From a phage: DNA of 44,927 bases. A model generated the notes under the pieces. The model made no database searches. It saw nothing but the letters and a program-made list of their open reading frames with translations, and had not been told where the DNA came from. The position numbers were made by a program, and so were the translations under genes. The DNA lies in sequence record PZ871095.1; one strand, 5' to 3'. Positions 4,578 through 44,622 of the stretch are shown here, piece by piece; the stretch's first letter is position 1, and every line of letters begins with the position of its first letter.

Positions 4578-4899
4578 ATACGCAGCGATTGGGCTGGTTA
4601 TCGGTCTGGCGGTAGGATTCTGGCTAGGTGACTCCTATCGCGCTGGCGTAGTGGCGGAGGCGGCGCAAGAAGCGCAAGCCAAAGCCCAACGGCAGCAAAC
4701 TAAAGTAATCGAGCGCTCCGTGCAGGCAGAACAAGCCCGCGACGTGGAATACCGGACTATCACAAAAGAGGTTGTTAAATATGTTACGCGCCCTAACCGC
4801 CCTGATTGTAGTTTTGACGCTGAGCGCGTGCGGATCAAGCAGCGTGCCGTTGATGCCGCTAACGGAGTCGGCACTGCGACCGCCGTGCAAGTTCGATAA
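4570..4899 (+). CDS. Rz-like inner-membrane spanin (i-spanin)
   Basis: GTG start; N-terminal transmembrane segment AAIGLVIGLAVGFWLG followed by a charged coiled-coil-like region rich in A/Q/E/R; a lipoprotein ORF is embedded in the +1 frame. Confidence 0.6.
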   Translation: MIKYAAIGLVIGLAVGFWLGDSYRAGVVAEAAQEAQAKAQRQQTKVIERSVQAEQARDVEYRTITKEVVKYVTRPNRPDCSFDAERVRIKQRAVDAANGVGTATAVQVR

Positions 4900-6143: not shown

Positions 6144-6178
6144 TTTGTTTTCCTTCATATCTCTGTTGGTGTGCAACC

Positions 6179-6208
6179 AATATAATGCAACCAACATACG
6201 CAATGCAA
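6179..6208 (-). promoter_or_regulatory. putative sigma70-type promoter for the minus-strand gene pair (TTGCAT-N18-TATATT)
   Basis: Minus-strand reading cgcTTGCATtgcgtatgTTGGTTGCATTATATTGGTTGCAC; contains two copies of the recurring TTGGTTGCA motif; about 30 nt upstream of the ATG at 6143. Confidence 0.4.
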
Positions 6209-11043: not shown

Positions 11044-11067
11044 GGGCCAGCACGGCCCCTTTTTTAT
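11044..11067 (+). terminator. rho-independent terminator (GGGGCC-agcac-GGCCCC + TTTTTTATT)
   Basis: Perfect GC stem and T-run directly after the major tail gene. Confidence 0.7.
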
Positions 11068-11081
11068 TGGAGAATACTACA

Positions 11082-11444
11082 ATGGCTAAAGCACCACTCT
11101 TCACACTTGACCCTAAGCCAACCTTTAAGCTGCCGATTGAGATCCCGCGCCCTGGTGAGAACGAACCAGGCAAGATGACGTTTACCGTACGCCACCGCCC
11201 GATCGACGAGTTTTCGCAGACCATGCAGGACACCGAACGCAAGCTGTCGGAATATGACGACAATGACCCGGACGGCTTTAACGTTATGGTCGAGGCCATC
11301 ATGCACGTCGCAGAAGGCTGGAATCTGCCGGACGAATTTAACGCGGAGAACGTCCGCCGCCTGGTGGTCAACTATCCACGCGCGTTCGGTGTGTTCCACA
11401 CGTCGTACTATCTCGAACTGATGGGGTTGCGTGAAAAAAACTAA
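11082..11444 (+). CDS. tail assembly chaperone (lambda G-like)
   Basis: 120 aa from ATG 11082 (GGAG ribosome-binding site); located between major tail and tape measure genes; ends with slippery heptamer A_AAA_AAC at 11435-11441. Confidence 0.75.
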   Translation: MAKAPLFTLDPKPTFKLPIEIPRPGENEPGKMTFTVRHRPIDEFSQTMQDTERKLSEYDDNDPDGFNVMVEAIMHVAEGWNLPDEFNAENVRRLVVNYPRAFGVFHTSYYLELMGLREKN

Positions 11445-11758
11445 TTGAGGCGGCGCGACGCTTTTATGGCCCGCCGCCACCCTCCGAAGATTTAGCTGCA
11501 AGTTTATGGGGCGCGGCCCCCGAAGATGTTTGTCCACCTGTTGCGCTGTGGCCCGACAACGCGAAGGTAGTCGCAGTCTTCACAGATTGCTCCACGCAAT
11601 GGCGCACCGGATTTGGTGGCGCATACGGCATCGACTACGGCGTGCTGGAGTGGTTATTTAAGATGCACGGTATCGAAAACGAACAGCGCGCGTTTAAAGA
11701 TATCAAGCTAATGGAACGAATAGCGCTTGATGAGATGGCGCAGCAGAACCCCGCATAA
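11082..11758 (+). CDS. tail assembly chaperone frameshift product (lambda GT-like, -1 shift near 11435-11441)
   Basis: The -1 frame is open for about 105 codons from the slippery site to a TAA at 11756-11758, with no independent start or ribosome-binding site; canonical position for programmed frameshifting. Confidence 0.6.
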
Positions 11759-11760
11759 TG

Positions 11761-12012
11761 AAGCGGGACGTCCCGCTTTGTCCCGCCCTGTAAAACCGCA
11801 TATCTAATCACTTTCATTGCATAAACTCAAAGCGGGACAGGCGGGACGTCCCGTTTTGTCCCGCCCATGAAATGTGCATACCTATTCTAATTTCGTGCAT
11901 AAAACAAGCGGGACAGAAAGCGGGACAGACAAGGGGCGGGACAAAGCGGGACAGCACCCCGTCCCCGCCAGTGCTGCCGCGGTTTTCAGCCGATCGGGAC
12001 AAGCGGGACAAA
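11761..12012. repeat. cluster of GCGGGACA octamer repeats (about 12-14 copies, direct and inverted)
   Basis: Direct reading: GCGGGAC(A/G) recurs at roughly 11-16 bp spacing, including two GCGGGACGTCCCG palindromic hairpins followed by T-runs; starts right after the chaperone extension stop. Confidence 0.85.
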
Positions 12013-12015
12013 GCC

Positions 12016-12064
12016 CAGTCTTTCAGACTAGACGGGGGTCAACGGCCCCCCTCGTCTGAGACTG
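12016..12064 (+). promoter_or_regulatory. conserved 49-nt bulged hairpin element (copy 1)
   Basis: CAGTCTttCAGACtaGACGGGGG-tcaacgg-CCCCCCTCGTCTGAGACTG folds into an interrupted stem of about 18 bp; near-identical copy at 39700-39749. Confidence 0.5.
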
Positions 12065-12132
12065 AATAAGGTTTGTTTGAAATTTGCTGATACAATGACA
12101 GTCGGCAACTGCATAAAAAAGGGGACTGCATA

Positions 12133-14775
12133 ATGGCAGATCAAGCGGCTGGCATCACGCTAAAGGCGGATGTTGCACAAATCAGAACGGCAAATACTGT
12201 GCTGGACTCCTTCGCACAGAAATCCGAGAACACAGAAAACAAGGTTAAGAAATTAAACGACACCCTCGGCAAATCCAAAAAGGTGACGAGTGACGCCGCG
12301 GGCGGAATGGAGAAGCTGGCGACTGAATCGCAGCGCGCCGCCGATGGCATGACGAAACAGGAGCGACTTGCCAACAGGTTAGGCATGTCGACAAAAAACC
12401 TGGGCTTTGCCTCGCGTAACGCCGCATTCCAGTTACAGGATATCGCAGTTACGCTTGAGATGGGGATGCCAGTACACCGCGTTATGCTTCAGCAGTTACC
12501 GCAGTTAACTGGGGCGTTCGGCGGACTGGGTAACACGCTGCGTTATGTTGCGGGATTCCTCGGCCCAGTAGGGATCGGCCTTGCCGCCGTAACGGCAACG
12601 TTAGGCGTGGGCGTGGCAATTACGTCCCGCGCAGAGAACCAGGTCGCCGCGCTTAACAAGACGCTGGCGCTTTCCGGCAACATTTCCGGCCTGACGGCAA
12701 ACCAGATCCTGGTGCTATCCGAGAACGCCGAGCGCATGGGCGGGTCGTTCCGCAAGACGCGTGACACAATCCAGGCGCTGGCGGCGGCGGGTGTGAAAGC
12801 GGGTGGTGACTTCGGCGCACTGGCGAAGGTAGTGAATGACTTCGCGAAGGTGTCCAGCCAGCCGATCGAGGATGTAGTCGCGGCGGTGGCGAAGCTATCT
12901 ACCGACCCGGTAGGTGGCTTGCGAGCATTGGCTGATAAGTATCACGTCGTAAACGAAGCGCAGATCCAGCAGGTGCAGTCGCTCGTTGATGCGGGTCGTG
13001 AGACAGACGCAGTTGCGTTGGCTAACAAAACAGCCGCTGCGTCGTTCACCAGCATGACCAATGAAATCAAGTCCAACATGGGTACGCTTGAGCGGTCGAT
13101 GAACGTCGTCACATCGGCAGCTAAATCTATGTGGGATGCAATCCTGGATGTGGGCCGCGCGCAGTCCTCGAATGAGTCAGAGATGAAAGCGCGTGAGTCA
13201 TTGCAGCGCATGACCACGGCTTATTATGCCGAGATGAAAGCGGTAAACGCTGCCGGTGGGGTAATGACTGAAGCGCAGAAAGCACGTATTAACATGCTTT
13301 ACAGCGAACTGGTCGCCCAGGAAAAAGTGGTGGCGTCGCTCACCCTGCGTAATCGTGCGGAGCGAGACAACGCCCGCGCCGCAGACGAATCCGCAAAGGC
13401 GAACGAGGAGGCCAACCGCACTGCCCGTGACCGCGCCGCGTTCGAGAAGGAATACGCCACCAACGCTAAGAAGCGCGCCGACGAGATCGCCCGCCTCAAT
13501 TTGCTGAATAAGCGCGGCGTGATTGACGAGAAAGAGCTTGCCGAGGCGGTGAAGCAGGTAAACGAGCGTTACAAAGACCCCGCCCCGAAGAAGGCCGCCG
13601 CTGTTCGAGTCGATGCCGGGCTGAAAATGCTGGAAGTCGCGCGAAGCGAATTAGCCCAGCTTCGTGAGTCTGGGAAGCAGATCGAAGCCAACGCATCGAC
13701 GCAGACCAGAACGCAACGCGCGCAAGCGGCCCTTAACAAGCTGATTGCCGACAACGAGCAGTTAATCGCTGCGAGCAAAGAAAGGGCGCTGACGGCAGCA
13801 GAGAAGCAGCAATTAGTCGAGTTCGGGCGCGTGAAGGAAGTACGCGAGCAGATCGTCGAAGAAGCCAAATTGCTGGACGCAAAAGAGAAGCAGGTCAAGG
13901 CGCACGCGCAGATCGACGCCTTCGTTAAGAACCAGAACGCCGAGCTAAAAGCCACCGCGGCGGGCTATGCGCTTTCCACTCGCGAAGCGGCAAACCTGCG
14001 CGAAGAATTGCAGCTAATTGACCGCCTGAAGCGGGTTGGCGCTAACGATACCGATATTGACAAGGCGGTGTCTAAGCTGCGAGAAGTGCAGGAAGCACAG
14101 ACCGGCGCTAACGCCTCGTTATGGGATGGATTCAGTCGCGGGCTTAAGGATAGCGTGGATGAAATGGGTAACGGATATACGCAGATGGCGTCGCTCACGA
14201 AATTTACATTCAGCGCTATGCAGGACACGATGAACGAGTTTTTCGAGACTGGTAAGCTGAACGCAAAGGATATGGTTAAGTCCATCCTGAGCGAATTAAT
14301 CAAGCTGGCTACCTCGCAGGCGTTCAAGTCCATCGTTAGCGCTTTCGGTGGTGACGGCGGCAAAAACGGATTGTTCGGCGCTATCTTCTCTGGCCTCACT
14401 AAGAATGCGGACGGCGGAGCGTACACAGGCGGCAATCTCGCGGCCTATTCGGGGAAAGTGGTAAGCCAGCCTACCTTTTTCAGTTATGGCGTCCAGGCGT
14501 TCGCTAAGGGCGCTGGGTTGATGGGTGAGGCTGGACCCGAGGCCATCATGCCACTGAAGCGCGGGCCGGACGGGAAACTGGGCGTTGCCGCGTCTGGCGC
14601 AGGCGGTGGTATGGTCGTGACGACTAACGTTTACACGGGGACCGGTAAGACGGACACCAGTGTTAGCGGGCCAGACCCACGTACCGCGCAGGCGTTCGGC
14701 AAGCAAATCACCGAGGCGGTGAAGTCCGAGATCGTGAAAGCGACTAAACCAGGTGGTGTACTTTACAAACGATGA
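12133..14775 (+). CDS. tail tape measure protein
   Basis: 880 aa, long helical A/K/E/Q-rich protein with a glycine-rich hydrophobic segment; directly follows the chaperone genes. Confidence 0.9.
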   Translation: MADQAAGITLKADVAQIRTANTVLDSFAQKSENTENKVKKLNDTLGKSKKVTSDAAGGMEKLATESQRAADGMTKQERLANRLGMSTKNLGFASRNAAFQLQDIAVTLEMGMPVHRVMLQQLPQLTGAFGGLGNTLRYVAGFLGPVGIGLAAVTATLGVGVAITSRAENQVAALNKTLALSGNISGLTANQILVLSENAERMGGSFRKTRDTIQALAAAGVKAGGDFGALAKVVNDFAKVSSQPIEDVVAAVAKLSTDPVGGLRALADKYHVVNEAQIQQVQSLVDAGRETDAVALANKTAAASFTSMTNEIKSNMGTLERSMNVVTSAAKSMWDAILDVGRAQSSNESEMKARESLQRMTTAYYAEMKAVNAAGGVMTEAQKARINMLYSELVAQEKVVASLTLRNRAERDNARAADESAKANEEANRTARDRAAFEKEYATNAKKRADEIARLNLLNKRGVIDEKELAEAVKQVNERYKDPAPKKAAAVRVDAGLKMLEVARSELAQLRESGKQIEANASTQTRTQRAQAALNKLIADNEQLIAASKERALTAAEKQQLVEFGRVKEVREQIVEEAKLLDAKEKQVKAHAQIDAFVKNQNAELKATAAGYALSTREAANLREELQLIDRLKRVGANDTDIDKAVSKLREVQEAQTGANASLWDGFSRGLKDSVDEMGNGYTQMASLTKFTFSAMQDTMNEFFETGKLNAKDMVKSILSELIKLATSQAFKSIVSAFGGDGGKNGLFGAIFSGLTKNADGGAYTGGNLAAYSGKVVSQPTFFSYGVQAFAKGAGLMGEAGPEAIMPLKRGPDGKLGVAASGAGGGMVVTTNVYTGTGKTDTSVSGPDPRTAQAFGKQITEAVKSEIVKATKPGGVLYKR

Positions 14776-16196: not shown

Positions 16197-16937
16197 ATGT
16201 TAACGAAAAAGGTTAAAAGCGATATCGCCGCGCACGTTGCGGCGTGTCTGCCGGAAGAAGCCTGCGGCCTGGTGGTCATGGTGGGTCGTAGGCAAGTGTT
16301 CGTCCCATGTCTGAACGTATTTGAAGACCCGACCGGCGTGCGCTCACGCAAAGACGCGTTTACTATTAGTGATATGGCCTGGATGGATGCCGAGGATATG
16401 GGCGACGTCGTGCGCGTAGTCCACTCGCATCCGGGCCAGCGCGAGCTTACCCCATCACTGGGAGACGTTAACGGATGCAACGGCAGCGGCGTAGTCTGGA
16501 CCATCACTAACGAATATGGCGACTTTATCGAGATCGACCCTGAAGACCCGCCGCTGGTAGGCCGCCGATTTGTTCTCGGAATTACAGATTGTTATGGCCT
16601 CGTCATGGACTGGCACAAAAAGCAGGGCGTAAACCTGCCAGACTTCCGCGTGCCGTATAACTGGTGGGAGACAGGCGAAAATCTGTATATGGATAACTGG
16701 TACGGCGCGGGCTTCAGGGAATGCGAGGAGAATACGCCGGGGGCGATGGTCATCATGCAGATTAGCGCGCCAGTGCCTAACCACGCTGGGATATTCCTTC
16801 CGGGCAACCAACTACTACACCATATCTACGGCAGTCTGTCGAGCGTAGTCCCCTTCCGGGCAGGATTTTTCCGCGACAATGTGGTTAAATGGGTCCGTCA
16901 TAAAGACCTACCGGGGAATATCACAGAATGGCAATGA
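16197..16937 (+). CDS. tail assembly protein (lambda K-like, MPN/JAB plus NlpC/P60-like)
   Basis: 246 aa; HSHPG metal-binding motif typical of MPN/JAB domains; position in the M-L-K-I-J order. Confidence 0.75.
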   Translation: MLTKKVKSDIAAHVAACLPEEACGLVVMVGRRQVFVPCLNVFEDPTGVRSRKDAFTISDMAWMDAEDMGDVVRVVHSHPGQRELTPSLGDVNGCNGSGVVWTITNEYGDFIEIDPEDPPLVGRRFVLGITDCYGLVMDWHKKQGVNLPDFRVPYNWWETGENLYMDNWYGAGFRECEENTPGAMVIMQISAPVPNHAGIFLPGNQLLHHIYGSLSSVVPFRAGFFRDNVVKWVRHKDLPGNITEWQ

Positions 16938-22292: not shown

Positions 22293-24047
22293 ATGGCGGC
22301 GGGTACTCTATCCGTAACGAATAACAGCAAGGCGGTTGTTGGGGTTGGCACGACGTTTACCGCGCTGAAGGCTGGCGACTTCCTGTCGCTGGTAGTGGGG
22401 CAAGTCCCTTACACTGTCGCTATTGCATCCGTAGAAAGTGACACCGCGCTTACGCTGGTGCTGCCGTTCGATGGCCCAACGGCAACCGGCCTCGCATGGG
22501 ATAGCGTGGCGCGCGATACAATGTCGCTTGCGACTATGGGCGTAACCGTCCAGGCGCAGAAAGCATTGCGCTTGCTGATTGCAGATGAGAACAACTGGCG
22601 CGCAATCTTCGGCGACGATGAAGAAATCACAGTGACGTTACCTAACGGGCAGGTTATGCAGGGCATGTCATGGGGCTATCTGTCACAGTTGATGAAACAG
22701 ATCGACCCCGTTGAGATGCGCAACCTGCAACAACAAGCCGCCGCATCTGAAGCAGCCGCGCAAGGATTTCGTAACGAGGCTGAAGGATTTCGAGACGGCG
22801 CGCAAGGATACCGCAACGAGGCGCTCCAATTCCGCACCGACTGCGAAGGGCTGAAGAACGAAACGACAAACCTTCGCAACGATGCGCTCCAATTCCGCAC
22901 CGACTGCGAAGGGCTGAAGAACGAAACGACAAACCTTCGCAACGATGCTAACACAGCTAAGACTGGCGCGGAGACGGCACGCGATCAGGCGCAGAACATC
23001 GCCGACGGTATGGACCCTGGACAGTATATGCAGAAATCTGCAAACCTGAGCGATGTAGTGGATAAGGCGCAAGGCCGCGCGAATATGGGTCTTGGCACTA
23101 CAGATGCCGTGGAGTTTGGTGGGGCCACCCTCAATGGTCACACCCGCATCAATGGCTCGTTGCTGTTGGGGCGTAACCAGTGGGATGGGTCTAGCTGGGG
23201 GAGCTACGGACTACAATCGTCATTCGTCATCATGTCGCCGGATGGAGACTCCGAGCCGGGATTTTACATCAGGCCGCTATCGGGTGCGCCTGGGTACGCA
23301 ACGTCGTTCACCTATAATCTCGCGATTAATCTTTTCAGCACCAGTGCTCGCATCAAGGCGGTTAACTTCTCATCCAGCACTACGACTATGGGATATAACG
23401 AGATGTGGTCACGTGCATGTTTCCAGGGGCAGCCATACGAGGCCCAGGCGGGGGTTGAGAACTACCAATCGCTTGTCGCAGGTACTTGCGGTACGGTATC
23501 ACACGGATTTTACGGTGGCGTTGCGTTCGGCATGATGACTGCTGGCGGGGATGGGTGGCCTGTCGGTCAGATCTCGATCGGCACGCAGGACAGAGCCGCT
23601 GATGGCACTATCGGATTACAAATGCACTTCCGTTTCCATTCATCCGGTAACATTACGTATACGGGGCCGGCGGGGTCGGGGTCATTCCAGCAAATCCCGG
23701 CATCTGACCGCAACATTAAGCATGATATTAAAGACGATAAATCCAGCACAGCATACGATAACATTAGAGCCATTCGATTCCGTAATTTCGTATTTAATGA
23801 TGACGAGCAGGAGCGTATTCGTCGCGGGGTTATCGCACAGGAGCTTGAAGAAATCGACCCGCTTTATGTTAAGCACCGCGAATACCACAACATGGAGCTT
23901 AACGGGCCGAAGATTACTCGACTGGAGCTTGACACGACGCCGCTGTTACTGGACACAATGCGAGCGTTGCAGGATACGATTAAGCAGGTGGAGGAGTTGA
24001 AGGCCGAGATCGCAGCTATGAAACAGGTGGAGGAGTTGAAGAAATAA
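22293..24047 (+). CDS. tail fiber protein with C-terminal intramolecular chaperone (S74 peptidase-like) domain
   Basis: 584 aa from ATG 22293 (GAGGA ribosome-binding site); SDRNIKHDIKD... segment characteristic of autoproteolytic fiber chaperone domains; internal exact tandem repeat. Confidence 0.8.
   Translation: MAAGTLSVTNNSKAVVGVGTTFTALKAGDFLSLVVGQVPYTVAIASVESDTALTLVLPFDGPTATGLAWDSVARDTMSLATMGVTVQAQKALRLLIADENNWRAIFGDDEEITVTLPNGQVMQGMSWGYLSQLMKQIDPVEMRNLQQQAAASEAAAQGFRNEAEGFRDGAQGYRNEALQFRTDCEGLKNETTNLRNDALQFRTDCEGLKNETTNLRNDANTAKTGAETARDQAQNIADGMDPGQYMQKSANLSDVVDKAQGRANMGLGTTDAVEFGGATLNGHTRINGSLLLGRNQWDGSSWGSYGLQSSFVIMSPDGDSEPGFYIRPLSGAPGYATSFTYNLAINLFSTSARIKAVNFSSSTTTMGYNEMWSRACFQGQPYEAQAGVENYQSLVAGTCGTVSHGFYGGVAFGMMTAGGDGWPVGQISIGTQDRAADGTIGLQMHFRFHSSGNITYTGPAGSGSFQQIPASDRNIKHDIKDDKSSTAYDNIRAIRFRNFVFNDDEQERIRRGVIAQELEEIDPLYVKHREYHNMELNGPKITRLELDTTPLLLDTMRALQDTIKQVEELKAEIAAMKQVEELKK
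22821..22946. repeat. exact 63-bp tandem duplication (2 copies) inside the tail fiber gene
   Basis: gcgctccaattccgcaccgactgcgaagggctgaagaacgaaacgacaaaccttcgcaacgat appears twice back to back, encoding ALQFRTDCEGLKNETTNLRND twice. Confidence 0.9.
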
Positions 24048-25246: not shown

Positions 25247-25309
25247 AGTATTACCCTTTTTAGTGAGGGGGCTGTATTGCCCCGACGAGTTAACTATAAT
25301 GCAACCAAC

Positions 25310-25780
25310 CTATTGGTTGCAAGTGAATTTTGCAACGTTTATTGCGTAAATTTTCGGAACCAAATCACCACACGCCCGACGAATTGCCGCGATGTTCTTC
25401 TCGCAATCTTCAATGATGACCAGTTCCGACACGTCTGCGTAGCAGACCATTTTGAATACAGCGCACGCCTTAAACTCTGGCGGCGGGGTGTCGTCCAGCA
25501 TGTGGCGCATAAACAACCGGCCGTTCGGGAAGACCTCCAATTGCTCGGCGGTGGTGTCCCAACATTCTCGCTGCCGGTTGGTCAGATACGCGATCTCGAA
25601 GCCTTGCTCTTTATACATGCGCAGTAGCGGCAGCATATCCATGTTAAGGTCTTCGCGGACATGCGCCTTGTGCCACTTCGCCCAAAAGGTGGATTTAGTT
25701 TTTATGCCCGGCACCAAGTCGGCACGCGCATCACTTGAACCGTTAATAACGCCATCCAAATCGCAAATCAGTAATTTCAT
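25310..25780 (-). CDS. HAD-superfamily hydrolase (putative nucleotidase/phosphatase)
   Basis: 156 aa; N-terminal LLICDLDGVI matches HAD motif I (DxDG); ATG start. Confidence 0.65.
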   Translation of the reverse strand: MKLLICDLDGVINGSSDARADLVPGIKTKSTFWAKWHKAHVREDLNMDMLPLLRMYKEQGFEIAYLTNRQRECWDTTAEQLEVFPNGRLFMRHMLDDTPPPEFKACAVFKMVCYADVSELVIIEDCEKNIAAIRRACGDLVPKIYAINVAKFTCNQ

Positions 25781-26959: not shown

Positions 26960-26988
26960 AATATAATGCAACCAATCTAATTATGCAA
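26960..26988 (-). promoter_or_regulatory. putative sigma70-type promoter (TTGCAT-N17-TATATT) with TTGGTTGCA motif
   Basis: Minus-strand reading aTTGGTTGCATaattagaTTGGTTGCATTATATTgaggg, about 45 nt upstream of the ATG at 26912. Confidence 0.4.
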
Positions 26989-26993
26989 CCAAT

Positions 26994-32898: not shown

Positions 32899-33683
32899 TT
32901 AACGGCGGCGACGTTTACGTGGTGCTTCGTCTTCGTCGTCTTCGTCCTCATCTTCGTCATCGCGGGACTTGCGGCGTTTGCGAGGTTTTTCATCTTCCTC
33001 ATCATCGTCGTCATCGCGGCGCTTGGACTTTTTGGACTTGCGCGGCTTGTCATCTTCATCATCGTCATCACGACGTTTTGACTTCTTAGCCTTGCGCGGT
33101 GCTTCGTCTTCGTCGTCGTTGTCCAGGTCTTCATCGGAGCAAGAAGACCCGCCACCGCCGAAGGCTTCACCGTCATCACGGAAGCGTAAACCCAGCAAGC
33201 CAGCACCGAGTCCCTTGCCGTTGGTGTTGTTCCACGCCCAAATATCAAGTGACACGTTGCAATAACAACCGGAGTAGATCTCCTGGCCTTCAATCTCGTC
33301 GCCGTCGATGGTCAGACCTTGTTCAGTCTGCTTCTCGCCGAGTGACGTTTGAATGATTGGCTGTTTGAACGATTTAGCGTTGATGTACAACATGCCTTCG
33401 AATTCTTCGGTTACTTCGTCGCGCTCGTCACCGTCGCGAACTGCGCATTCCTTAGAATCCTGGGCGTAGTGGCGGTCCATCCACTTATCGGCATTCTTCT
33501 CGGATTTCAGCTTATCGGTGAGCACTGCGCGCGCTGCCGCTTCCACTTTGTCCACCTGCGGATCTTCTTTATCCAGAAGAATCACGGCACGGTATGCCGG
33601 TTTTTGTCCATCCTGTTTAGGGGTATCACGTTCCCAAATTTTCAGGAAGCATACGCGCACATTTTTCAGGTTGACTTTAGCCA
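32899..33683 (-). CDS. SSB-like protein (DUF2815 family) with repetitive charged C-terminal tail
   Basis: N-terminus MAKVNLKNVRV typical of DUF2815; start placed at ATG 33683 after GAGGA; C-terminus carries three repeats of an acidic run followed by PRK(A/S)KKSKRR. Confidence 0.7.
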
Positions 33684-33995
33684 TTTTCCAATTCCTCATT
33701 TTCACATGTATCGGGGTTATTGTGAGCCACCCCGTCCGGCTTGGTTGCTAATCTACTTGGTTGCGCCTGAGCGGTCAAGCATTTTCATTAAAAAGATTTC
33801 TGGTAACGTAGTCGGTAGCGTTCTCGATCCAGCTTAATGGCGGGCGGTCGATATTCTTCGCCACCCAATCGGCGGCAGCTTCGCTATAACCGTCATCCAG
33901 CCAGCGGGTCGGATGCCGAATCATCCACGCCATGCACACAATGCAGGATAAAGCCCAGCGCGCCGATAACAAACATCAATAATATTGCGAATACT

Positions 33996-35914: not shown

Positions 35915-36427
35915 TTAGTCTTCCAGTTCGAAATAGGTTTCTACAATTTCTTTCAGATCTTTGTGGAAGTCTTCTACGTCGTCATCTTCCAGTTTTGCGA
36001 TTGATTTGATCTCGAACGCTTCCAGCAGGTCGTCAAATTCGTCGTTGGCATCGTCGTCATCACCACCGGCGATAATCGCGGCATACTGTTTGATTTCGTC
36101 GCGCATCTCTGCCAGCGGGTCGGCATCTTTCTTGCCTTTGCCTTTCGCCGGAGCTTTTTTGGTTTTCGCCGGTTTTTCGTCTTCGGCTTCTTCATCGTCG
36201 TCATCTTCTACGACTTCTTTTTTGGCCTTACCTTTAGCCGGTGCTTTTTTGGTTTTCGCCGGTGCTTCGTCTTCAGCGTCGTCATCTTCTACGACTTCTT
36301 TTTTCGCCTTAGATGGCTTTTTATCTTCCTGCTTACCAACGGCAGCGCCAACGGTTTCATAATGCTTAGCGATGGTTTCCAGTGCTACTACGCCGCGTGT
36401 AATCAGGTTTACGATTTGTTCAAACAT
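35915..36427 (-). CDS. acidic repeat-containing early protein
   Basis: 170 aa; first gene after the leftward promoter; about 50 D/E residues, internal imperfect tandem repeat (KKEVVEDDD..EDE.PAKTKKAPAKGK twice), very acidic C-terminus. Confidence 0.6.
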   Translation of the reverse strand: MFEQIVNLITRGVVALETIAKHYETVGAAVGKQEDKKPSKAKKEVVEDDDAEDEAPAKTKKAPAKGKAKKEVVEDDDDEEAEDEKPAKTKKAPAKGKGKKDADPLAEMRDEIKQYAAIIAGGDDDDANDEFDDLLEAFEIKSIAKLEDDDVEDFHKDLKEIVETYFELED

Positions 36428-36827: not shown

Positions 36828-37157
36828 ATGAATGTAAACGACGCAATCGAAATGTTAACGAAGACTGTTTGCAGTGAGACAAGCCGGTCATGGGCATACA
36901 CCGATGCCGTGGGGGCTGTGTTATTTGAAATCGAACGACTGCGGCTTACCGAAAAAGAATTGCGCGCCAGGCTGGAACTACTCAACGGTACAGCAGCAAG
37001 CAAGCTGCAAAAGCACAATGAAGAAATGGAAGAATACAAAAAGCAGGTTATCCGTTTGCGCGACGAAGGGAAATCATGGGCGATGATTGCCGAGTTGACC
37101 GGAATTAATCAGAGCACAGTGCGCTCCTGGGTACGCAATAATAAAACTTCTAAGTAA
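36828..37157 (+). CDS. putative HTH DNA-binding regulator
   Basis: 109 aa; C-terminal KSWAMIAELTGINQSTVRSWV resembles a helix-turn-helix; first rightward gene of the divergent control region; GAGGG ribosome-binding site. Confidence 0.6.
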   Translation: MNVNDAIEMLTKTVCSETSRSWAYTDAVGAVLFEIERLRLTEKELRARLELLNGTAASKLQKHNEEMEEYKKQVIRLRDEGKSWAMIAELTGINQSTVRSWVRNNKTSK

Positions 37158-37167
37158 GGCCACGGCA

Positions 37168-39432
37168 ATGAGCTTAATTAAATTCGCTGTAACACGACCC
37201 GCTAAAAAAGGCGAAAAAGCCAGGGCGGAAAACTTCCAGATGACCACCGATGAGTTTTTCGAATTTATCAATGACGCGAAAGAAATATCCTCGGTGCATA
37301 TCAACAAGACGGAAGATAAAGCCGAGTATGCGCGCCGCAAGCGTAAGGCCGATGGCATCGTGGCGTATACCAGTGACGGATTGCGTCGTAAGACCAGTGC
37401 GGTGGACCGCTCGATCCTGTTCTTTGATATTGACCGCACCGACACCCGCACCCTGCGCCGCTGCCGTAAGGCGTTCATCGACGCGGGTCTGGAACACGTA
37501 TTTCACACCACCACCGGCGACCGCCACCCGCTGAAGGGTGGCACGCGTTGCGCCCGTTTCCTGGTGCTCACTGACAAGCCTGTACCGGCTGAAGACCTGG
37601 GCCGCGTCCAGTATGCACTATTACACCAACTGGGCCTGTCAGATGTGGACTTCGACGATTGCACGAAAGACACAAACCGCCTTATGTACCTGCCTCACCA
37701 GCAATCGGTTGTTAAGTGTCACTACGGCAAACGCGCCCGCGTCCGTCGTCTGCTTCGCCTGGCTGATAAGCTGGGAGTGGAGAAAGAGGAAGTACGCCGC
37801 GAACTAACCCAGGGCGATGACGGCGTGGCGGACGGTATTCTGGATTGGTGCTTCCAGGCAGGATTCGAACCGCTGTCGTCCGGTCGTGGTTATGAAGTGC
37901 CGTGCCCTAACGAACACCTGCACAGCGGCGAAGGGTCCACCGCTATCATGGTTAAGGATGGCGAGATCCGTTTCAAGTGTATGCACACCGGCAACGAGTG
38001 TTGCTCGGAACTGAACAGACACCAGCACCTGGCGCTACGTCTTATCGGGATCCCGGACCACCTGAACGTCGAACCGCACAACATGTCACGTAAGCAAATC
38101 GCCGCCATCCTCCCAGGACTGGACGACGAGGAAGTGGAATCGTGCTATGAACATATCGTTGATGCGGTCGGAGACGGCGACGAGTACGGCGGATGTACTG
38201 ACGCTGACCTGGATAACGAACCGGTCGCACTGTTCAGTAAGCACGACCCGATCATAGAAGGCCTGGTCAACTTCAAATCGACCTGGTATATGGCTGGCGA
38301 GTCGAACATCGGTAAATCGTTCTACGTGCTGGGTCAAATGGGTGCGGTTGCCGCGGGGATTCCGTTCGGGGGTGCGAAGGTCGTCCAGTCCCATTGCTTC
38401 TATTTCGACGCGGAAGGTGGCGAAGCCTCCAACCAGCGTAAGGAAGCATTGCAGATCAAATATGAGCACGACCTCGACAAGCTGCACATTATCGATCTGC
38501 AATCACGCGGCTGGGATATCACCAGCAAATCCGGCTTGCGTGAAGTTATCAGCTTTATCAACCGCACCGCTAACGGCGAACCGGTTGGTCTGGTGGCGTT
38601 CGACTCCCTCAACCAGACTGTTGCGTTGCGGTCCGCCGATGCTAAACCGTTCGACGAGAACAACGCCAGCGATATGGGTGAAGTGGTCAAAGCGCTGAAG
38701 GCCATTGCGGAAAATACCGGCGGCAGTGCGGGCGTCATCCACCACCCGGCGAAAGGCGCAAACGGCAGCAGATCCCCCCGCGGGTCCGGCGCACTGCATG
38801 GCGCTGTCGATTCCGCGTTCTTCCTGGAGCAACCGGACGACAACCAGCCAGGTCAATTGAACCTGTATCACGAAAAGGCACGTAACGGCATCAAGCAAGC
38901 GCCGCGCGGCTTCGTCCTGCTCAAGTGCAAGGTTAAGGTGGATCTCCGCAAGTCCGAGGCGTTCGAAGCCCACCAGTCCACCAGCACCGGGCCGGACTTC
39001 GGTGATGTAGTTGCAGGTTGGGACGTCAAGCCGATTGCATCCACGCCACGCGACGAGACTCTTTACCTCGTACCGGTCGCCCTAGCACCGTTCGCCATCG
39101 AACAGGCGAAGGCCTCGGGCAAGGCCGCAGTTAAGGAAGAGAACTCCGCAGGACCGCGCAACGAAAAAGAGAAAGTGCTTTATGCGGCACTGGAAAAACT
39201 GATGGAAGATAACCCGGACCATACCGGATTCAGTAAATCGGCAATTGTCCGCCAGGCTGGACTGGCGAAAGGTGGCACATCGACGAAGGCAATCGACGAT
39301 ATGGTCGAGCGCGGAGTGTTAGGTTTTTATACAGACCCGCACACCAGGGCCATCTATGGGTCGTCTAATATCGTCATAAAAACGAAGATACCCATCACGC
39401 TTTCGGCGACCGATGACGACCTGAAAGATTAA
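37168..39432 (+). CDS. DNA primase/helicase (primase-like N-terminus plus P-loop ATPase)
   Basis: 754 aa; Walker A GESNIGKS and Walker B-like LVAFDSLNQ in the C-terminal half; Cys/His cluster in the middle; replication-module context. Confidence 0.75.
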   Translation: MSLIKFAVTRPAKKGEKARAENFQMTTDEFFEFINDAKEISSVHINKTEDKAEYARRKRKADGIVAYTSDGLRRKTSAVDRSILFFDIDRTDTRTLRRCRKAFIDAGLEHVFHTTTGDRHPLKGGTRCARFLVLTDKPVPAEDLGRVQYALLHQLGLSDVDFDDCTKDTNRLMYLPHQQSVVKCHYGKRARVRRLLRLADKLGVEKEEVRRELTQGDDGVADGILDWCFQAGFEPLSSGRGYEVPCPNEHLHSGEGSTAIMVKDGEIRFKCMHTGNECCSELNRHQHLALRLIGIPDHLNVEPHNMSRKQIAAILPGLDDEEVESCYEHIVDAVGDGDEYGGCTDADLDNEPVALFSKHDPIIEGLVNFKSTWYMAGESNIGKSFYVLGQMGAVAAGIPFGGAKVVQSHCFYFDAEGGEASNQRKEALQIKYEHDLDKLHIIDLQSRGWDITSKSGLREVISFINRTANGEPVGLVAFDSLNQTVALRSADAKPFDENNASDMGEVVKALKAIAENTGGSAGVIHHPAKGANGSRSPRGSGALHGAVDSAFFLEQPDDNQPGQLNLYHEKARNGIKQAPRGFVLLKCKVKVDLRKSEAFEAHQSTSTGPDFGDVVAGWDVKPIASTPRDETLYLVPVALAPFAIEQAKASGKAAVKEENSAGPRNEKEKVLYAALEKLMEDNPDHTGFSKSAIVRQAGLAKGGTSTKAIDDMVERGVLGFYTDPHTRAIYGSSNIVIKTKIPITLSATDDDLKD

Positions 39433-39507
39433 ATTTTGCGCGCGTTGGTTGCCGATATGGGAATTCCCATATCGCTAAAAGATTAAATTTTGCGCGCATT
39501 GGTTGCC
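39424..39507. repeat. two 30-bp direct repeats flanking a perfect 20-bp palindrome
   Basis: AAAGATTAAATTTTGCGCGC(G/A)TTGGTTGCC at 39424-39453 and 39478-39507; palindrome GATATGGGAATTCCCATATC at 39454-39473; first repeat includes the primase stop codon. Confidence 0.8.
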
Positions 39508-39591
39508 ATTTTGGGTGTTTTTATCATGTCGTATTGGTTGCCGTGTTGTGTAGCTATAATGAATAGTTATGCAATAAAACTGCATAAAGTA

Positions 39592-39697
39592 AGCGGGACA
39601 GAAAGCGGGACAAACAAGGGGCGGGACAAAGCGGGACAGCACCCCCGTCCCGCCCCGGATGGCGCGGCCCGGAGAGGAGCGGGACAGGCGGGACAAA
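39592..39697. repeat. cluster of GCGGGACA octamer repeats (about 7 copies), second locus
   Basis: aagcgggacagaaagcgggacaaacaaggggcgggacaaagcgggacagc...gagcgggacaggcgggacaa; highly similar to 11901-12012. Confidence 0.85.
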
Positions 39698-39699
39698 CC

Positions 39700-39749
39700 C
39701 CAGTCTTTCAGACTAGACGGGGGTCAATGGCCCCCCTCGTCTGAGACTG
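39700..39749 (+). promoter_or_regulatory. conserved 49-nt bulged hairpin element (copy 2)
   Basis: Same sequence as 12016-12064 except one loop base (tcaatgg versus tcaacgg). Confidence 0.5.
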
Positions 39750-39909
39750 CATAAAATCCGGGGATTGCAAAATACACGGCAGCATGATGCGAAGTGCGGT
39801 CGTTGACGAACTAGGCAACCAATGCGAGTTGTATTATGCGGAGTGAAAAATGCGGTTTGCAGTCACAGCGGATAGCGATCAACTTTTTCATGCGCGTGAT
39901 TAATATTGG

Positions 39910-39938
39910 TTGCACACCCCCAGGCGTCCTGCTATATT
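39910..39938 (+). promoter_or_regulatory. putative sigma70-type promoter (TTGCAC-N17-TATATT) flanked by two TATTGGTTGCACACC repeats
   Basis: -35 and -10 hexamers with 17-nt spacer about 30 nt upstream of the ATG at 39967; the -35 lies within one TTGGTTGCA copy and the second copy follows the -10. Confidence 0.4.
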
Positions 39939-39966
39939 GGTTGCACACCAACATGAGGACTGAACA

Positions 39967-43276: not shown

Positions 43277-43327
43277 GCTTGACTCGCAACCAACACAGGG
43301 GCCATACTGCAACCAATCAACTGGAGG

Positions 43328-43479: not shown

Positions 43480-44622
43480 ATGCACCCGCAAACTAAAATT
43501 ACCGATGAGCAATTGATCGCAGAAATTCAGGCCGGAACTACGGTTAAAGAGATTGCGAAGAAGTACGGCATTGCACTTCGAAATGTCTACATGCGCAAAG
43601 CCCGCCTGTCAAAAAAGGGGATTGGTCACGGTAATGATGCCGTAATCCGCAAGCGCGTTGCCGATGGCTTTGGGGTTAAGCGCGTATCGGCCCTGGTGCG
43701 CGGCAATGGCGAAGAGGTCATGTCGTGGGTCATCACTGAGCAGGACAAAGAGCGCCAACTCGAAGCCATGCGCGCTGTTGTCGAGGGTATGAACAGCGAA
43801 ATCACACCGGCAGCGCCAGTAAAAGCCCCGCCAGTACCGATCCAGGCGCTCGACTTGCTCAACCTGTACACCGTGTCAGACTTCCACCTGGGCATGTTGG
43901 CATGGGGCGAGGAGACTGGCGAAGACTGGGATATGGCGATCGCCGAAGACCTGTTCTACCGCTGGTTTGTCGAAGCCTTCGCACGCGCCCCGGACGCAGG
44001 CACTGCCGTAATTAATATCCTCGGTGATATGGCCCACTTTGATAGCCTCGATGCTGTCACTCCGGCAAGTGGTCACATACTGGACGCTGACACCCGCTAC
44101 CAGAAACTGGTCCGATACATGATTCGCATGGTGCGCAACGTAGTCGAACTGGCGCTGCAAAAACACCACAAAGTCAAACTGCTAATCGTCCAGGGAAATC
44201 ATGACGAATCGGGTATGATTTGGCTGGCTGAGATGTTCAATACTCTGTACGAGAACGAGCCGCGCGTCGATGTAGATACGTCACCGGACGTATACAAGAT
44301 GGTGCAGCACGGTAAGACCACGCTGTTTTTCCACCACGGGCACAAAGCGCGATTCGATGCTATCGAGCCGGTTATGATTTCTAAATTCAGACAGGCTTTC
44401 GGGTCCAGTGAGTACAGCTACGCGCACGTAGGCCACTTGCACCACCAGAAGATTGTAGAATCCCGCAACATGATTGTTGAACAGCACCGGACGCTCGCAG
44501 CGAAAGACGCCTACGCCAGCCGTGGTGGTTGGATGTCCGGTCGCAGCGCCAACGTCATTACCTACAGCGCCAACTACGGCGAAGTAGCGCGCTTAACCAT
44601 TAGCCCGGAAATGTTGAAATGA
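43480..44622 (+). CDS. HTH-domain / calcineurin-like metallophosphoesterase fusion protein
   Basis: 380 aa; N-terminal HTH-like TVKEIAKKYGIALRNVY; phosphoesterase motifs DFHLG (DxH), ILGDMAH (GDxxH), VQGNHDE (GNHD/E), FFHHGH and AHVGHLHH. Confidence 0.7.
   Translation: MHPQTKITDEQLIAEIQAGTTVKEIAKKYGIALRNVYMRKARLSKKGIGHGNDAVIRKRVADGFGVKRVSALVRGNGEEVMSWVITEQDKERQLEAMRAVVEGMNSEITPAAPVKAPPVPIQALDLLNLYTVSDFHLGMLAWGEETGEDWDMAIAEDLFYRWFVEAFARAPDAGTAVINILGDMAHFDSLDAVTPASGHILDADTRYQKLVRYMIRMVRNVVELALQKHHKVKLLIVQGNHDESGMIWLAEMFNTLYENEPRVDVDTSPDVYKMVQHGKTTLFFHHGHKARFDAIEPVMISKFRQAFGSSEYSYAHVGHLHHQKIVESRNMIVEQHRTLAAKDAYASRGGWMSGRSANVITYSANYGEVARLTISPEMLK

Follow-up and report, generated by a model that had tools for sequence, protein, structure and literature searches.

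Two octamer arrays, one of them inside the tail operon, as probable iterons of the primase-helicase of a Dhillonvirus-type phage

Our analysis reports on two arrays of an octamer repeat in a phage genome, which are probably iterons for the C-terminal winged helix of the phage's own AEP-primase/AAA_25-helicase; judged from sequence comparison, each of the two loci would be an origin-type module. The window, by which we mean the whole stretch of 44,927 nucleotides that was analysed, is the complete or nearly complete genome of a Dhillonvirus-type E. coli siphophage. One array (locus 1) lies between the tail assembly chaperone and tape-measure genes, and the other (locus 2) follows the primase-helicase gene. 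Elements of this kind are well known; the placement of one inside a tail operon is unusual. Neither a Dhillonvirus origin nor CGGGACA/GCGGGACA iterons were described in the open-access literature that we searched.

Architecture of the two arrays

Matches to GCGGGACR on both strands of the window number 23, against 5.3 +/- 2.5 expected from 100 dinucleotide shuffles, none of which reached 23, and GCGGGAC forms the densest 7-mer cluster genome-wide. This count bears out the first-pass annotation, which had described a dense, non-chance cluster of 12-14 octamers between the chaperone and tape-measure genes; its figure was close to the 11 exact GCGGGAC(A/G) copies and two or three degenerate ones that lie at 11763-12010. 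Eight of the exact copies are on the plus strand (11763, 11832, 11841, 11908, 11920, 11936, 11946 and 12003) and three on the minus strand (11769-76, 11779-86 and 11857-64). The degenerate copies are TCGGGACA at 11994, GTCCCCGCC at 11961-69 and, with its core GTCCCG at 11848-53, the minus-strand part of the second palindrome.

The array occupies a 374-bp non-coding gap that extends from the G/GT stop codon (TAA, 11756-58) to the tape-measure start (12133). The G/GT gene itself has a textbook -1 slippery heptamer, A_AAA_AAC (11435-41), just 5' of the G stop codon (TAA, 11442-44); the T extension, which lacks its own start codon, terminates at the TAA at 11756-58. Adjacent direct copies within locus 1 start 9, 12, 16, 10 and 9 bp apart, which agrees only roughly with the helical-turn spacing first described. 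Both of the palindromes seen earlier are present (GCGGGACGTCCCGC at 11763-76 and GCGGGACGTCCCG at 11841-53), each followed by T residues and then by an inverted copy, but the T-runs attributed to them are only 3-4 nt long and a scan for terminators on the plus strand was negative.

These elements are organized into two 78-bp units (11763-11825 and 11841-11903), each consisting of a head-to-head iteron palindrome, T3-4, an inverted iteron and about 40 bp of AT-rich DNA with TGCATAAA at its end. The units are followed by four direct iterons, a degenerate inverted iteron, about 25 bp of variable sequence, two direct iterons and a hairpin (Table 1). The first iteron group begins 5 bp past the G/GT stop codon, has a DNA hairpin potential of z -3.8 and is conserved in 15 genomes. 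The AT-rich segments at 11787-11831 and 11865-11907 lie between groups that contain copies in both the plus and minus orientations, as in origins of the SaPI type.

Table 1. Coordinates of the features at the two loci and of the neighbouring genes.
Feature	Position	Strand	Remarks
Tail assembly chaperone G with -1 frameshift extension GT	11067..11758	+	G is 11067..11444; left border of the gap; DUF1799 / chaperone annotations
Iteron group A	11763..11786		palindrome GCGGGACGTCCCGC (14 bp, two head-to-head iterons), TTT, inverted iteron TGTCCCGC on +
AT-rich spacer 1	11787..11831		contains TGCATAAA (11818-25); iteron-flanked; candidate unwinding region
Iteron group B	11832..11864		direct GCGGGACA, palindrome GCGGGACGTCCCG, TTTT, inverted iteron
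AT-rich spacer 2	11865..11907		contains TGCATAAA (11896-903)
Four direct GCGGGACA iterons	11908..11953	+	start-to-start 12, 16, 10 bp; identical spacing at locus 2
Degenerate inverted iteron GTCCCCGCC	11961..11969	-	can pair with GGCGGGAC at 11935-42
Two direct iterons (TCGGGACA, GCGGGACA)	11994..12010	+	9 bp apart
Conserved G+C-rich hairpin/cruciform	12016..12064		49 nt, no T-run; dG -13.4 kcal/mol as DNA, z -3.5
Extended -10-like TGaTACAAT	12088..12096	+	invariant; upstream of the tape-measure gene
Tape measure protein gene	12133..14775	+	right border of the gap
Replicative primase-helicase	37168..39432	+	754 aa; proposed iteron-binding initiator
AT-rich box 5' of array 2	39555..39592		TATAAT, GAATAGTTATG, TGCATAAA
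Array 2	39593..39695	+	four direct iterons, one inverted (39646-53), two direct (39679, 39688)
Conserved hairpin, second copy	39701..39749		

The second cluster, overlooked in the first-pass annotation, has seven copies at 39593-39695 and starts 160 bp past the stop codon of 37168..39432, a position that agrees with that of the short repeats downstream of the initiator gene in origins of the SaPI type. A 174-bp direct repeat joins the two loci (11896-12069 and 39581-39754, 87% identity) with identical iteron spacing; it runs from TGCATAAA through the 49-nt G+C hairpin, and its AT-rich box is followed by four iterons in direct orientation, one inverted and another two direct ones ahead of that hairpin. 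At locus 2 the AT-rich box is on the upstream side of the array only. The hairpin occurs once per locus, and among genomes its loop alone varies. The same octamer iteron is thus found at two separated loci (11763-12010 and 39593-39695), as at ori and crr of P4. The element TGCATAAA occurs five times genome-wide, always on the plus strand and always in the two loci (11818, 11896, 12110, 39581 and 39748), where its copies bracket the iteron arrays and the hairpin; because all five lie within the two modules, we take it to belong to the module. A promoter role for TGCATAAA was considered and rejected, the hexamer being a poor fit to the -10 consensus.

The AT-rich box GAATAGTTATG, at 39561-39571 in the window, is also present just upstream of the iterons in Salmonella phage St162 (about 4840-4870 in sequence L147). 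The two phages share it despite their different iterons, CGGGACA and GGGGAGA respectively; binding of a host factor and DNA unwinding are possible functions.

Conservation and the junction with the tape-measure gene

Phage vB_EcoS-UDS3lw is 98.9% identical to the window over 11400-12400, and this 1-kb query, which includes locus 1, has matches in 159 GenBank phage records; in 146 of them one match alone accounts for 80% or more of its length. When IMG/VR was scanned on the basis of the hairpin, 30 stretches were found on 16 contigs of 42.5-45.2 kb, two on each contig with one exception. Both loci are present in all 15 of the Dhillonvirus genomes checked in IMG/VR, which confirms the conservation in relatives that the first-pass annotation had left to be checked.

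Counting the window, the alignments show locus 1 in 15 genomes and locus 2 in 17. Across them, locus 1 has 8-10 copies of CGGGAC and 2-4 of GTCCCG, and locus 2 has 6-7 and 0-1, respectively. The CGGGACA cores are invariant; the spacers differ, as do the 25-bp variable stretch and the loop of the hairpin, whose G5/C5 stem is kept. Invariant cores set among drifting spacers are the pattern expected for protein-binding sites, not for a drifting duplication. The two copies inside one genome sometimes share variants.

The position of locus 1, exactly between two genes that usually abut, can also be read as a transcription-unit boundary. The palindromes and the hairpin would then terminate or attenuate transcription after G/GT, TGaTACAAT would restart it for the tape-measure gene, and the repeats would act as RNA or DNA hairpins or as a roadblock. 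The palindrome GCGGGACGTCCCGC with its TTT(T) comes straight after the stop codon, and one GenBank record annotates a 'terminator' under the match. The invariant extended -10-like element 5' of the tape-measure gene suggests a possible separate promoter for that gene. A divergent relative (L138, IMGVR_UViG_3300045988_003101) has a canonical hairpin and T5 terminator at this place, ahead of the array, where an insertion, ggccgggtaattccggcc ttttt, separates the GT stop codon from the first iteron, a hint that the G/GT / tape-measure junction calls for termination. However, the terminator scan found none on the plus strand at locus 1 and none at locus 2, the T-runs, at 3-4 nt, fall short of the 5 or more T residues required, and the big hairpin lacks one altogether. 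A boundary also leaves unexplained the arrays within O-like genes and after primase-helicase genes of other viruses, and the co-variation of motif and winged helix, both of which are described below. As the explanation for the repeats we consider it unlikely; as an additional role it is plausible and compatible with the arrays being part of an origin.

The primase-helicase and array-bearing loci in other viruses

The domains of the protein encoded at 37168..39432 are an AEP primase fold (about residues 1-200), a Cys/His cluster, an AAA_25 RepA-like helicase and a C-terminal winged helix (about 660-740). Pfam detects AAA_25 only (residues 357-531, 6e-19), and PHROGs assigns the protein to 'replicative helicase-primase' (phrog_3228). 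The N-terminal fold is that of AEP/PrimPol. A sequence search of the PDB gave RSF1010 RepA as its best match, which was insignificant. The C-terminal winged helix, as found in SaPI-type systems, is predicted with moderate confidence (pLDDT 70). The protein has the combination that serves oriV of the RSF1010 type, a RepA-type (AAA_25) helicase with a RepB'-like AEP primase; a Toprim primase and SF3 helicase homologous to P4 gp-alpha were not found in it.

Scanning IMG/VR for two GCGGGACA copies 1-8 bp apart identified at least 120 loci, most of them unrelated to the window by blastn and ranging from 32 to 71% G+C; by their neighbouring genes at least six are Dhillonvirus-like. At no fewer than 18 unrelated loci a gene for a distant AAA_25 primase-helicase ends no more than 450 bp from the array, which typically has 6-16 CGGGAC cores between -150 and +350 of the stop codon, mostly on the coding strand. 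At another 18 or more, the array has a period of 11 and is situated inside a gene for a protein of 230-330 aa, which PHROGs identifies as an O-like replication initiator or a DnaD-like loader, and which is followed by a DnaB-like or Toprim-helicase gene. Among the matches listed, at least two loci have an AAA_25 protein with another repeat, and in at least one the motif pair lies outside the gene for an O-like initiator. The remaining loci, at least 75, include many with a single pair only and some coding tandem repeats (L024 4965-5010; L032, L052, L054 and L072), for example pentapeptide-like GCGGGACAGGT(C/T)(C/T)GC periods. As the motif-pair matches include coding tandem repeats, the 8-mer alone is not diagnostic without its context. 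The first-pass suggestion of iterons or a multimeric protein-binding array gains support from the unrelated initiator loci, of which there are at least 36, together with the co-variation and the invariant cores.

The array-adjacent primase-helicases contain three different primase modules, namely a Zn-ribbon with Toprim, a Prim-Pol with PriCT_2, and the AEP of the window, and have in common the helicase and a C-terminal block, 'W+..FY...TK+KAFxRAxxxLxxxGxV'. The association of one iteron with three primase modules, while helicase and C-terminal domain are shared, argues against its being a primase recognition site. For the winged helices of the Dhillonvirus protein, of the distant primase-helicases and of the O-like initiators, a common ancestry was not statistically supported (hhalign E 0.02-0.12); the expected helix and wing do align in the profile comparison of the C-terminal domains with the wHTH of the O-like initiators.

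Among the proteins of the window, the primase-helicase is the sole one common to many array-bearing loci (at least 20 among the matches listed). This bears on a further explanation, in which the repeats are operators for a phage HTH protein that regulates late genes. The first-pass annotation had named the HTH protein at 36828..37157 and the HTH-phosphoesterase at 43480..44622 as possible binders; both have HTH domains, and the small HTH gene lies directly 5' of the primase-helicase gene. Neither, however, has a homologue in the unrelated array-bearing loci listed, where the primase-helicase has its 20 or more, and the motif TTGGTTGC, found in intergenic pairs genome-wide (20 copies against 2.1 expected), is a more natural operator candidate. 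We therefore hold it to be very improbable that either HTH protein is the reader of the octamers.

The 20 copies of TTGGTTGC were matched by none of 100 shuffles. They are found at 6173-6194, 25301-25320, 26968-26992, 33741-33764, 36634, 39445-39541, 39815, 39906-39944 and 43286-43316, with single copies at 16804, 22268 and 29927. Most form close intergenic pairs, often overlapping -35-like positions 5' of TATAAT or TGcTATATT. The motif looks like a genome-wide operator or promoter element, for which the HTH protein 36828..37157 is a candidate binder. The window has other repeats within coding sequence. A perfect-register 63-bp tandem duplication (22812-22937, 98% identity) in the long tail fibre gene encodes a repeated 21-aa segment; an acidic/lysine-rich 170-aa protein (35915-36427, minus strand), called 'prohead core protein' in a relative's record, has a 90-bp internal repeat (KKAPAKGK...EDDDDEE); and GAC/GAA-rich repeats related to those of the latter occur in a second gene at 32915-33135.

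A structured non-coding RNA, such as a protein-sponge RNA in which repeated GGA-containing motifs end in a stable hairpin, would account for the location of all six direct repeats (four plus two) on the transcribed strand and for the stable hairpin behind them; at locus 2 a TATAAT lies about 35 nt upstream of the array. The RNA folding z-scores of the two modules (-1.7 and -2.5) lean in this direction, but they are weak, and the centroid retains the big hairpin alone. Rfam 15, searched with the whole window at the gathering threshold, gave no matches. The motif is found in both orientations, more markedly so in relatives, and the stems are invariant, with no covariation. Arrays inside protein-coding initiator genes, at 18 loci or more, also speak against an RNA, and we regard this explanation as highly improbable.

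A further line of evidence for iterons comes from four homologues picked from GenBank phages by protein similarity alone, whose 3' flanks were examined. Serratia phage Otaku (46% identity) has four copies of TGTGCGGAA, in inverted pairs, directly after the stop codon, and Salmonella phage St162 (44% identity) has six copies of GGGGAGA and a CTCCCCC in the same place. The other two, Kagunavirus 590B and Jerseyvirus Ent2 (33-35% identity), have no array after the gene. Among the motif-pair loci, two AAA_25 proteins show the same architecture with another repeat and no CGGGACA after the gene: in L043, whose C-terminal wHTH is different, GGGGCAC arrays surround the palindrome gtgccccccctatttagagggggggcac, and in L074, which has W/Q substitutions in the helix, CGTGACA arrays surround atacccccctctttagagggggggtat. 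In an alignment of the C-terminal domains, the residues after an invariant GG, at the predicted start of the recognition helix, are TSTKAIDDM and TNTTAINAL in two CGGGACA phages, DRYKILKDL in St162 and RYSDALKKM in Otaku. These five protein/repeat pairs, in which the helix residues differ with the repeat, are a purely correlative indication that the repeat may be specified by the initiator.

Otaku has a second cluster, of three TGCGGAA, two of which are full 9-mers in inverted orientation. Its TGTGCGGAA clusters (L151, 15436-15495 and 26491-26550) lie one after the primase-helicase gene and the other in an intergenic gap of the structural gene block; each is followed by a long G+C hairpin flanked by ttatgct...agcatacca, and the two hairpins are alike. 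St162 has no second cluster. On these sequences, the two-module design has arisen or been kept in Otaku's genus with a different repeat and is no Dhillonvirus oddity.

The same observations bear on the possibility that the real origin is the one beside the primase-helicase gene and that the tail operon contains only a duplicate of it without function, or a small mobile copy. The 174-bp module is indeed duplicated at 87% identity, the variants shared within genomes suggest recombination between the copies, and St162 manages with a single cluster. Against this, locus 1 is at the same site in 15 of 15 genomes, and 146 of 159 GenBank records match the 1-kb query over 80% or more of its length; it is richer in iterons than locus 2, and the extra units are not copies of locus 2; and its cores are invariant while the spacers drift. 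Furthermore, Otaku independently has a second cluster with a different iteron, and a two-module design in another genus argues against a functionless duplicate, which we consider distinctly unlikely.

Proposed origin modules and known replication systems

Our preferred reading, that both arrays are iterons for the primase-helicase, suggests a model for the modules. Several initiator molecules would bind the array, head-to-head iteron pairs would place two helicase rings, and the adjoining AT-rich segment would melt; the AEP domain could then prime, possibly on the extruded hairpin, like RepB' at the RSF1010 ssi sites. The tail-operon locus would be either a second origin or a crr-like cis partner of the site near the primase-helicase gene, and in view of its head-to-head palindromes and greater number of iterons it could be the main bidirectional origin, not an auxiliary site. 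Locus 1 is 25 kb from the initiator gene, so the argument from adjacency is direct for locus 2 only. GC skew and cumulative skew track only gene orientation and transcription and are uninformative for the origin. A terminase or pac site was considered and rejected as a poor fit with two loci, with the association with initiators and with arrays inside initiator genes. A search of a plasmid collection with the module gave no match.

A bolder proposal, which we hold to be doubtful, is that the tail-operon array is the obligatory second half of a bipartite origin, joined by DNA looping to the array near the primase-helicase gene, and is at the same time a replication-coupled insulator, splitting the late operon at the G/GT / tape-measure junction. 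In this proposal CGGGACA and its winged helix would travel together as a portable 'origin cassette', passing between two unrelated initiator architectures, the primase-helicase fusions and the O-like initiators, in phages with genomes of 35 to 70% G+C.

Dhillonviruses are common E. coli phages, met with in phage collections and therapy screens, and our analysis provides them with a concrete, testable origin and a candidate initiator, apparently undescribed before. For uncultured phages it offers a rule for finding origins, namely to look for short repeats and a G/C palindrome directly 3' of AAA_25 primase-helicase genes, and the natural protein/repeat pairs would lend themselves to studies of iteron recognition by winged helices. 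Given a second module in the tail operon, one may ask why some phages have kept two arrays for their initiator. The points for specialists to follow up are this second module between G/GT and the tape measure, and the occurrence of one iteron with two initiator architectures in widely differing phages.

The CGGGACA repeats inside O-like and DnaD-like genes of at least 18 other viral loci resemble the arrangement of lambda, whose ori lies inside gene O. The window itself has no O-like initiator, and the lambda iterons are 19-bp inverted repeats of different sequence.

Another likeness is to satellite phage P4. In the account of Ziegelin and Lanka, its alpha protein reportedly unites primase, helicase and a C-terminal winged-helix origin binder in one polypeptide, with octamer iterons at ori and crr. 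Both systems have a primase-helicase-winged-helix protein in one chain and octamer iterons at two separated cis loci (P4 alpha and ori/crr are summarised in PMC4234260). The P4 protein is composed of a Toprim primase and an SF3 helicase, whereas that of the window has an AEP fold and AAA_25, and the iteron sequences are unrelated (TGTTCACC in P4, GCGGGACA in the window). In pRN1 (ORF904) and Bordetella phage BPP-1/BIP-1, a winged-helix primase-helicase has its origin immediately 3' of its own gene, and a large stem-loop is essential (PMC4234260). The window has the same combination of winged-helix primase-helicase, downstream origin-type module and stem-loop; the pRN1 and BPP-1 origins are reportedly without iterons and their helicases are SF3, whereas in the window iterons dominate and the stem-loop is shorter.

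RSF1010 oriV shares with the window the combination of iterons and hairpin. From its domains, the primase-helicase of the window would combine in one chain the activities that are split in RSF1010 among RepB', RepA and RepC. RSF1010 uses three separate proteins and 20-mer iterons where the window has one protein and 8-mers, and it has two ssi hairpins on opposite strands of one origin, compared with one hairpin in each of two modules.

The origins of the SaPIs (Staphylococcus pathogenicity islands) have 6-12 short iterons immediately downstream of rep, with an AT-rich centre and iterons in opposite orientations, and the Rep initiator, a self-loading helicase that is sometimes fused to a primase (Pri-Rep), reads the short repeats through its C-terminal winged helix (PMC9371898). 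Locus 2 conforms to this arrangement, as does locus 1 in its internal organization. The helicase of the window is AAA_25/RepA-like and not of the SaPI Rep type, its iterons are 8-mers as against 5-6-mers, and its modules include a conserved G+C hairpin. The window also differs from the SaPIs in having an extra module far from the initiator gene, inside the tail operon.
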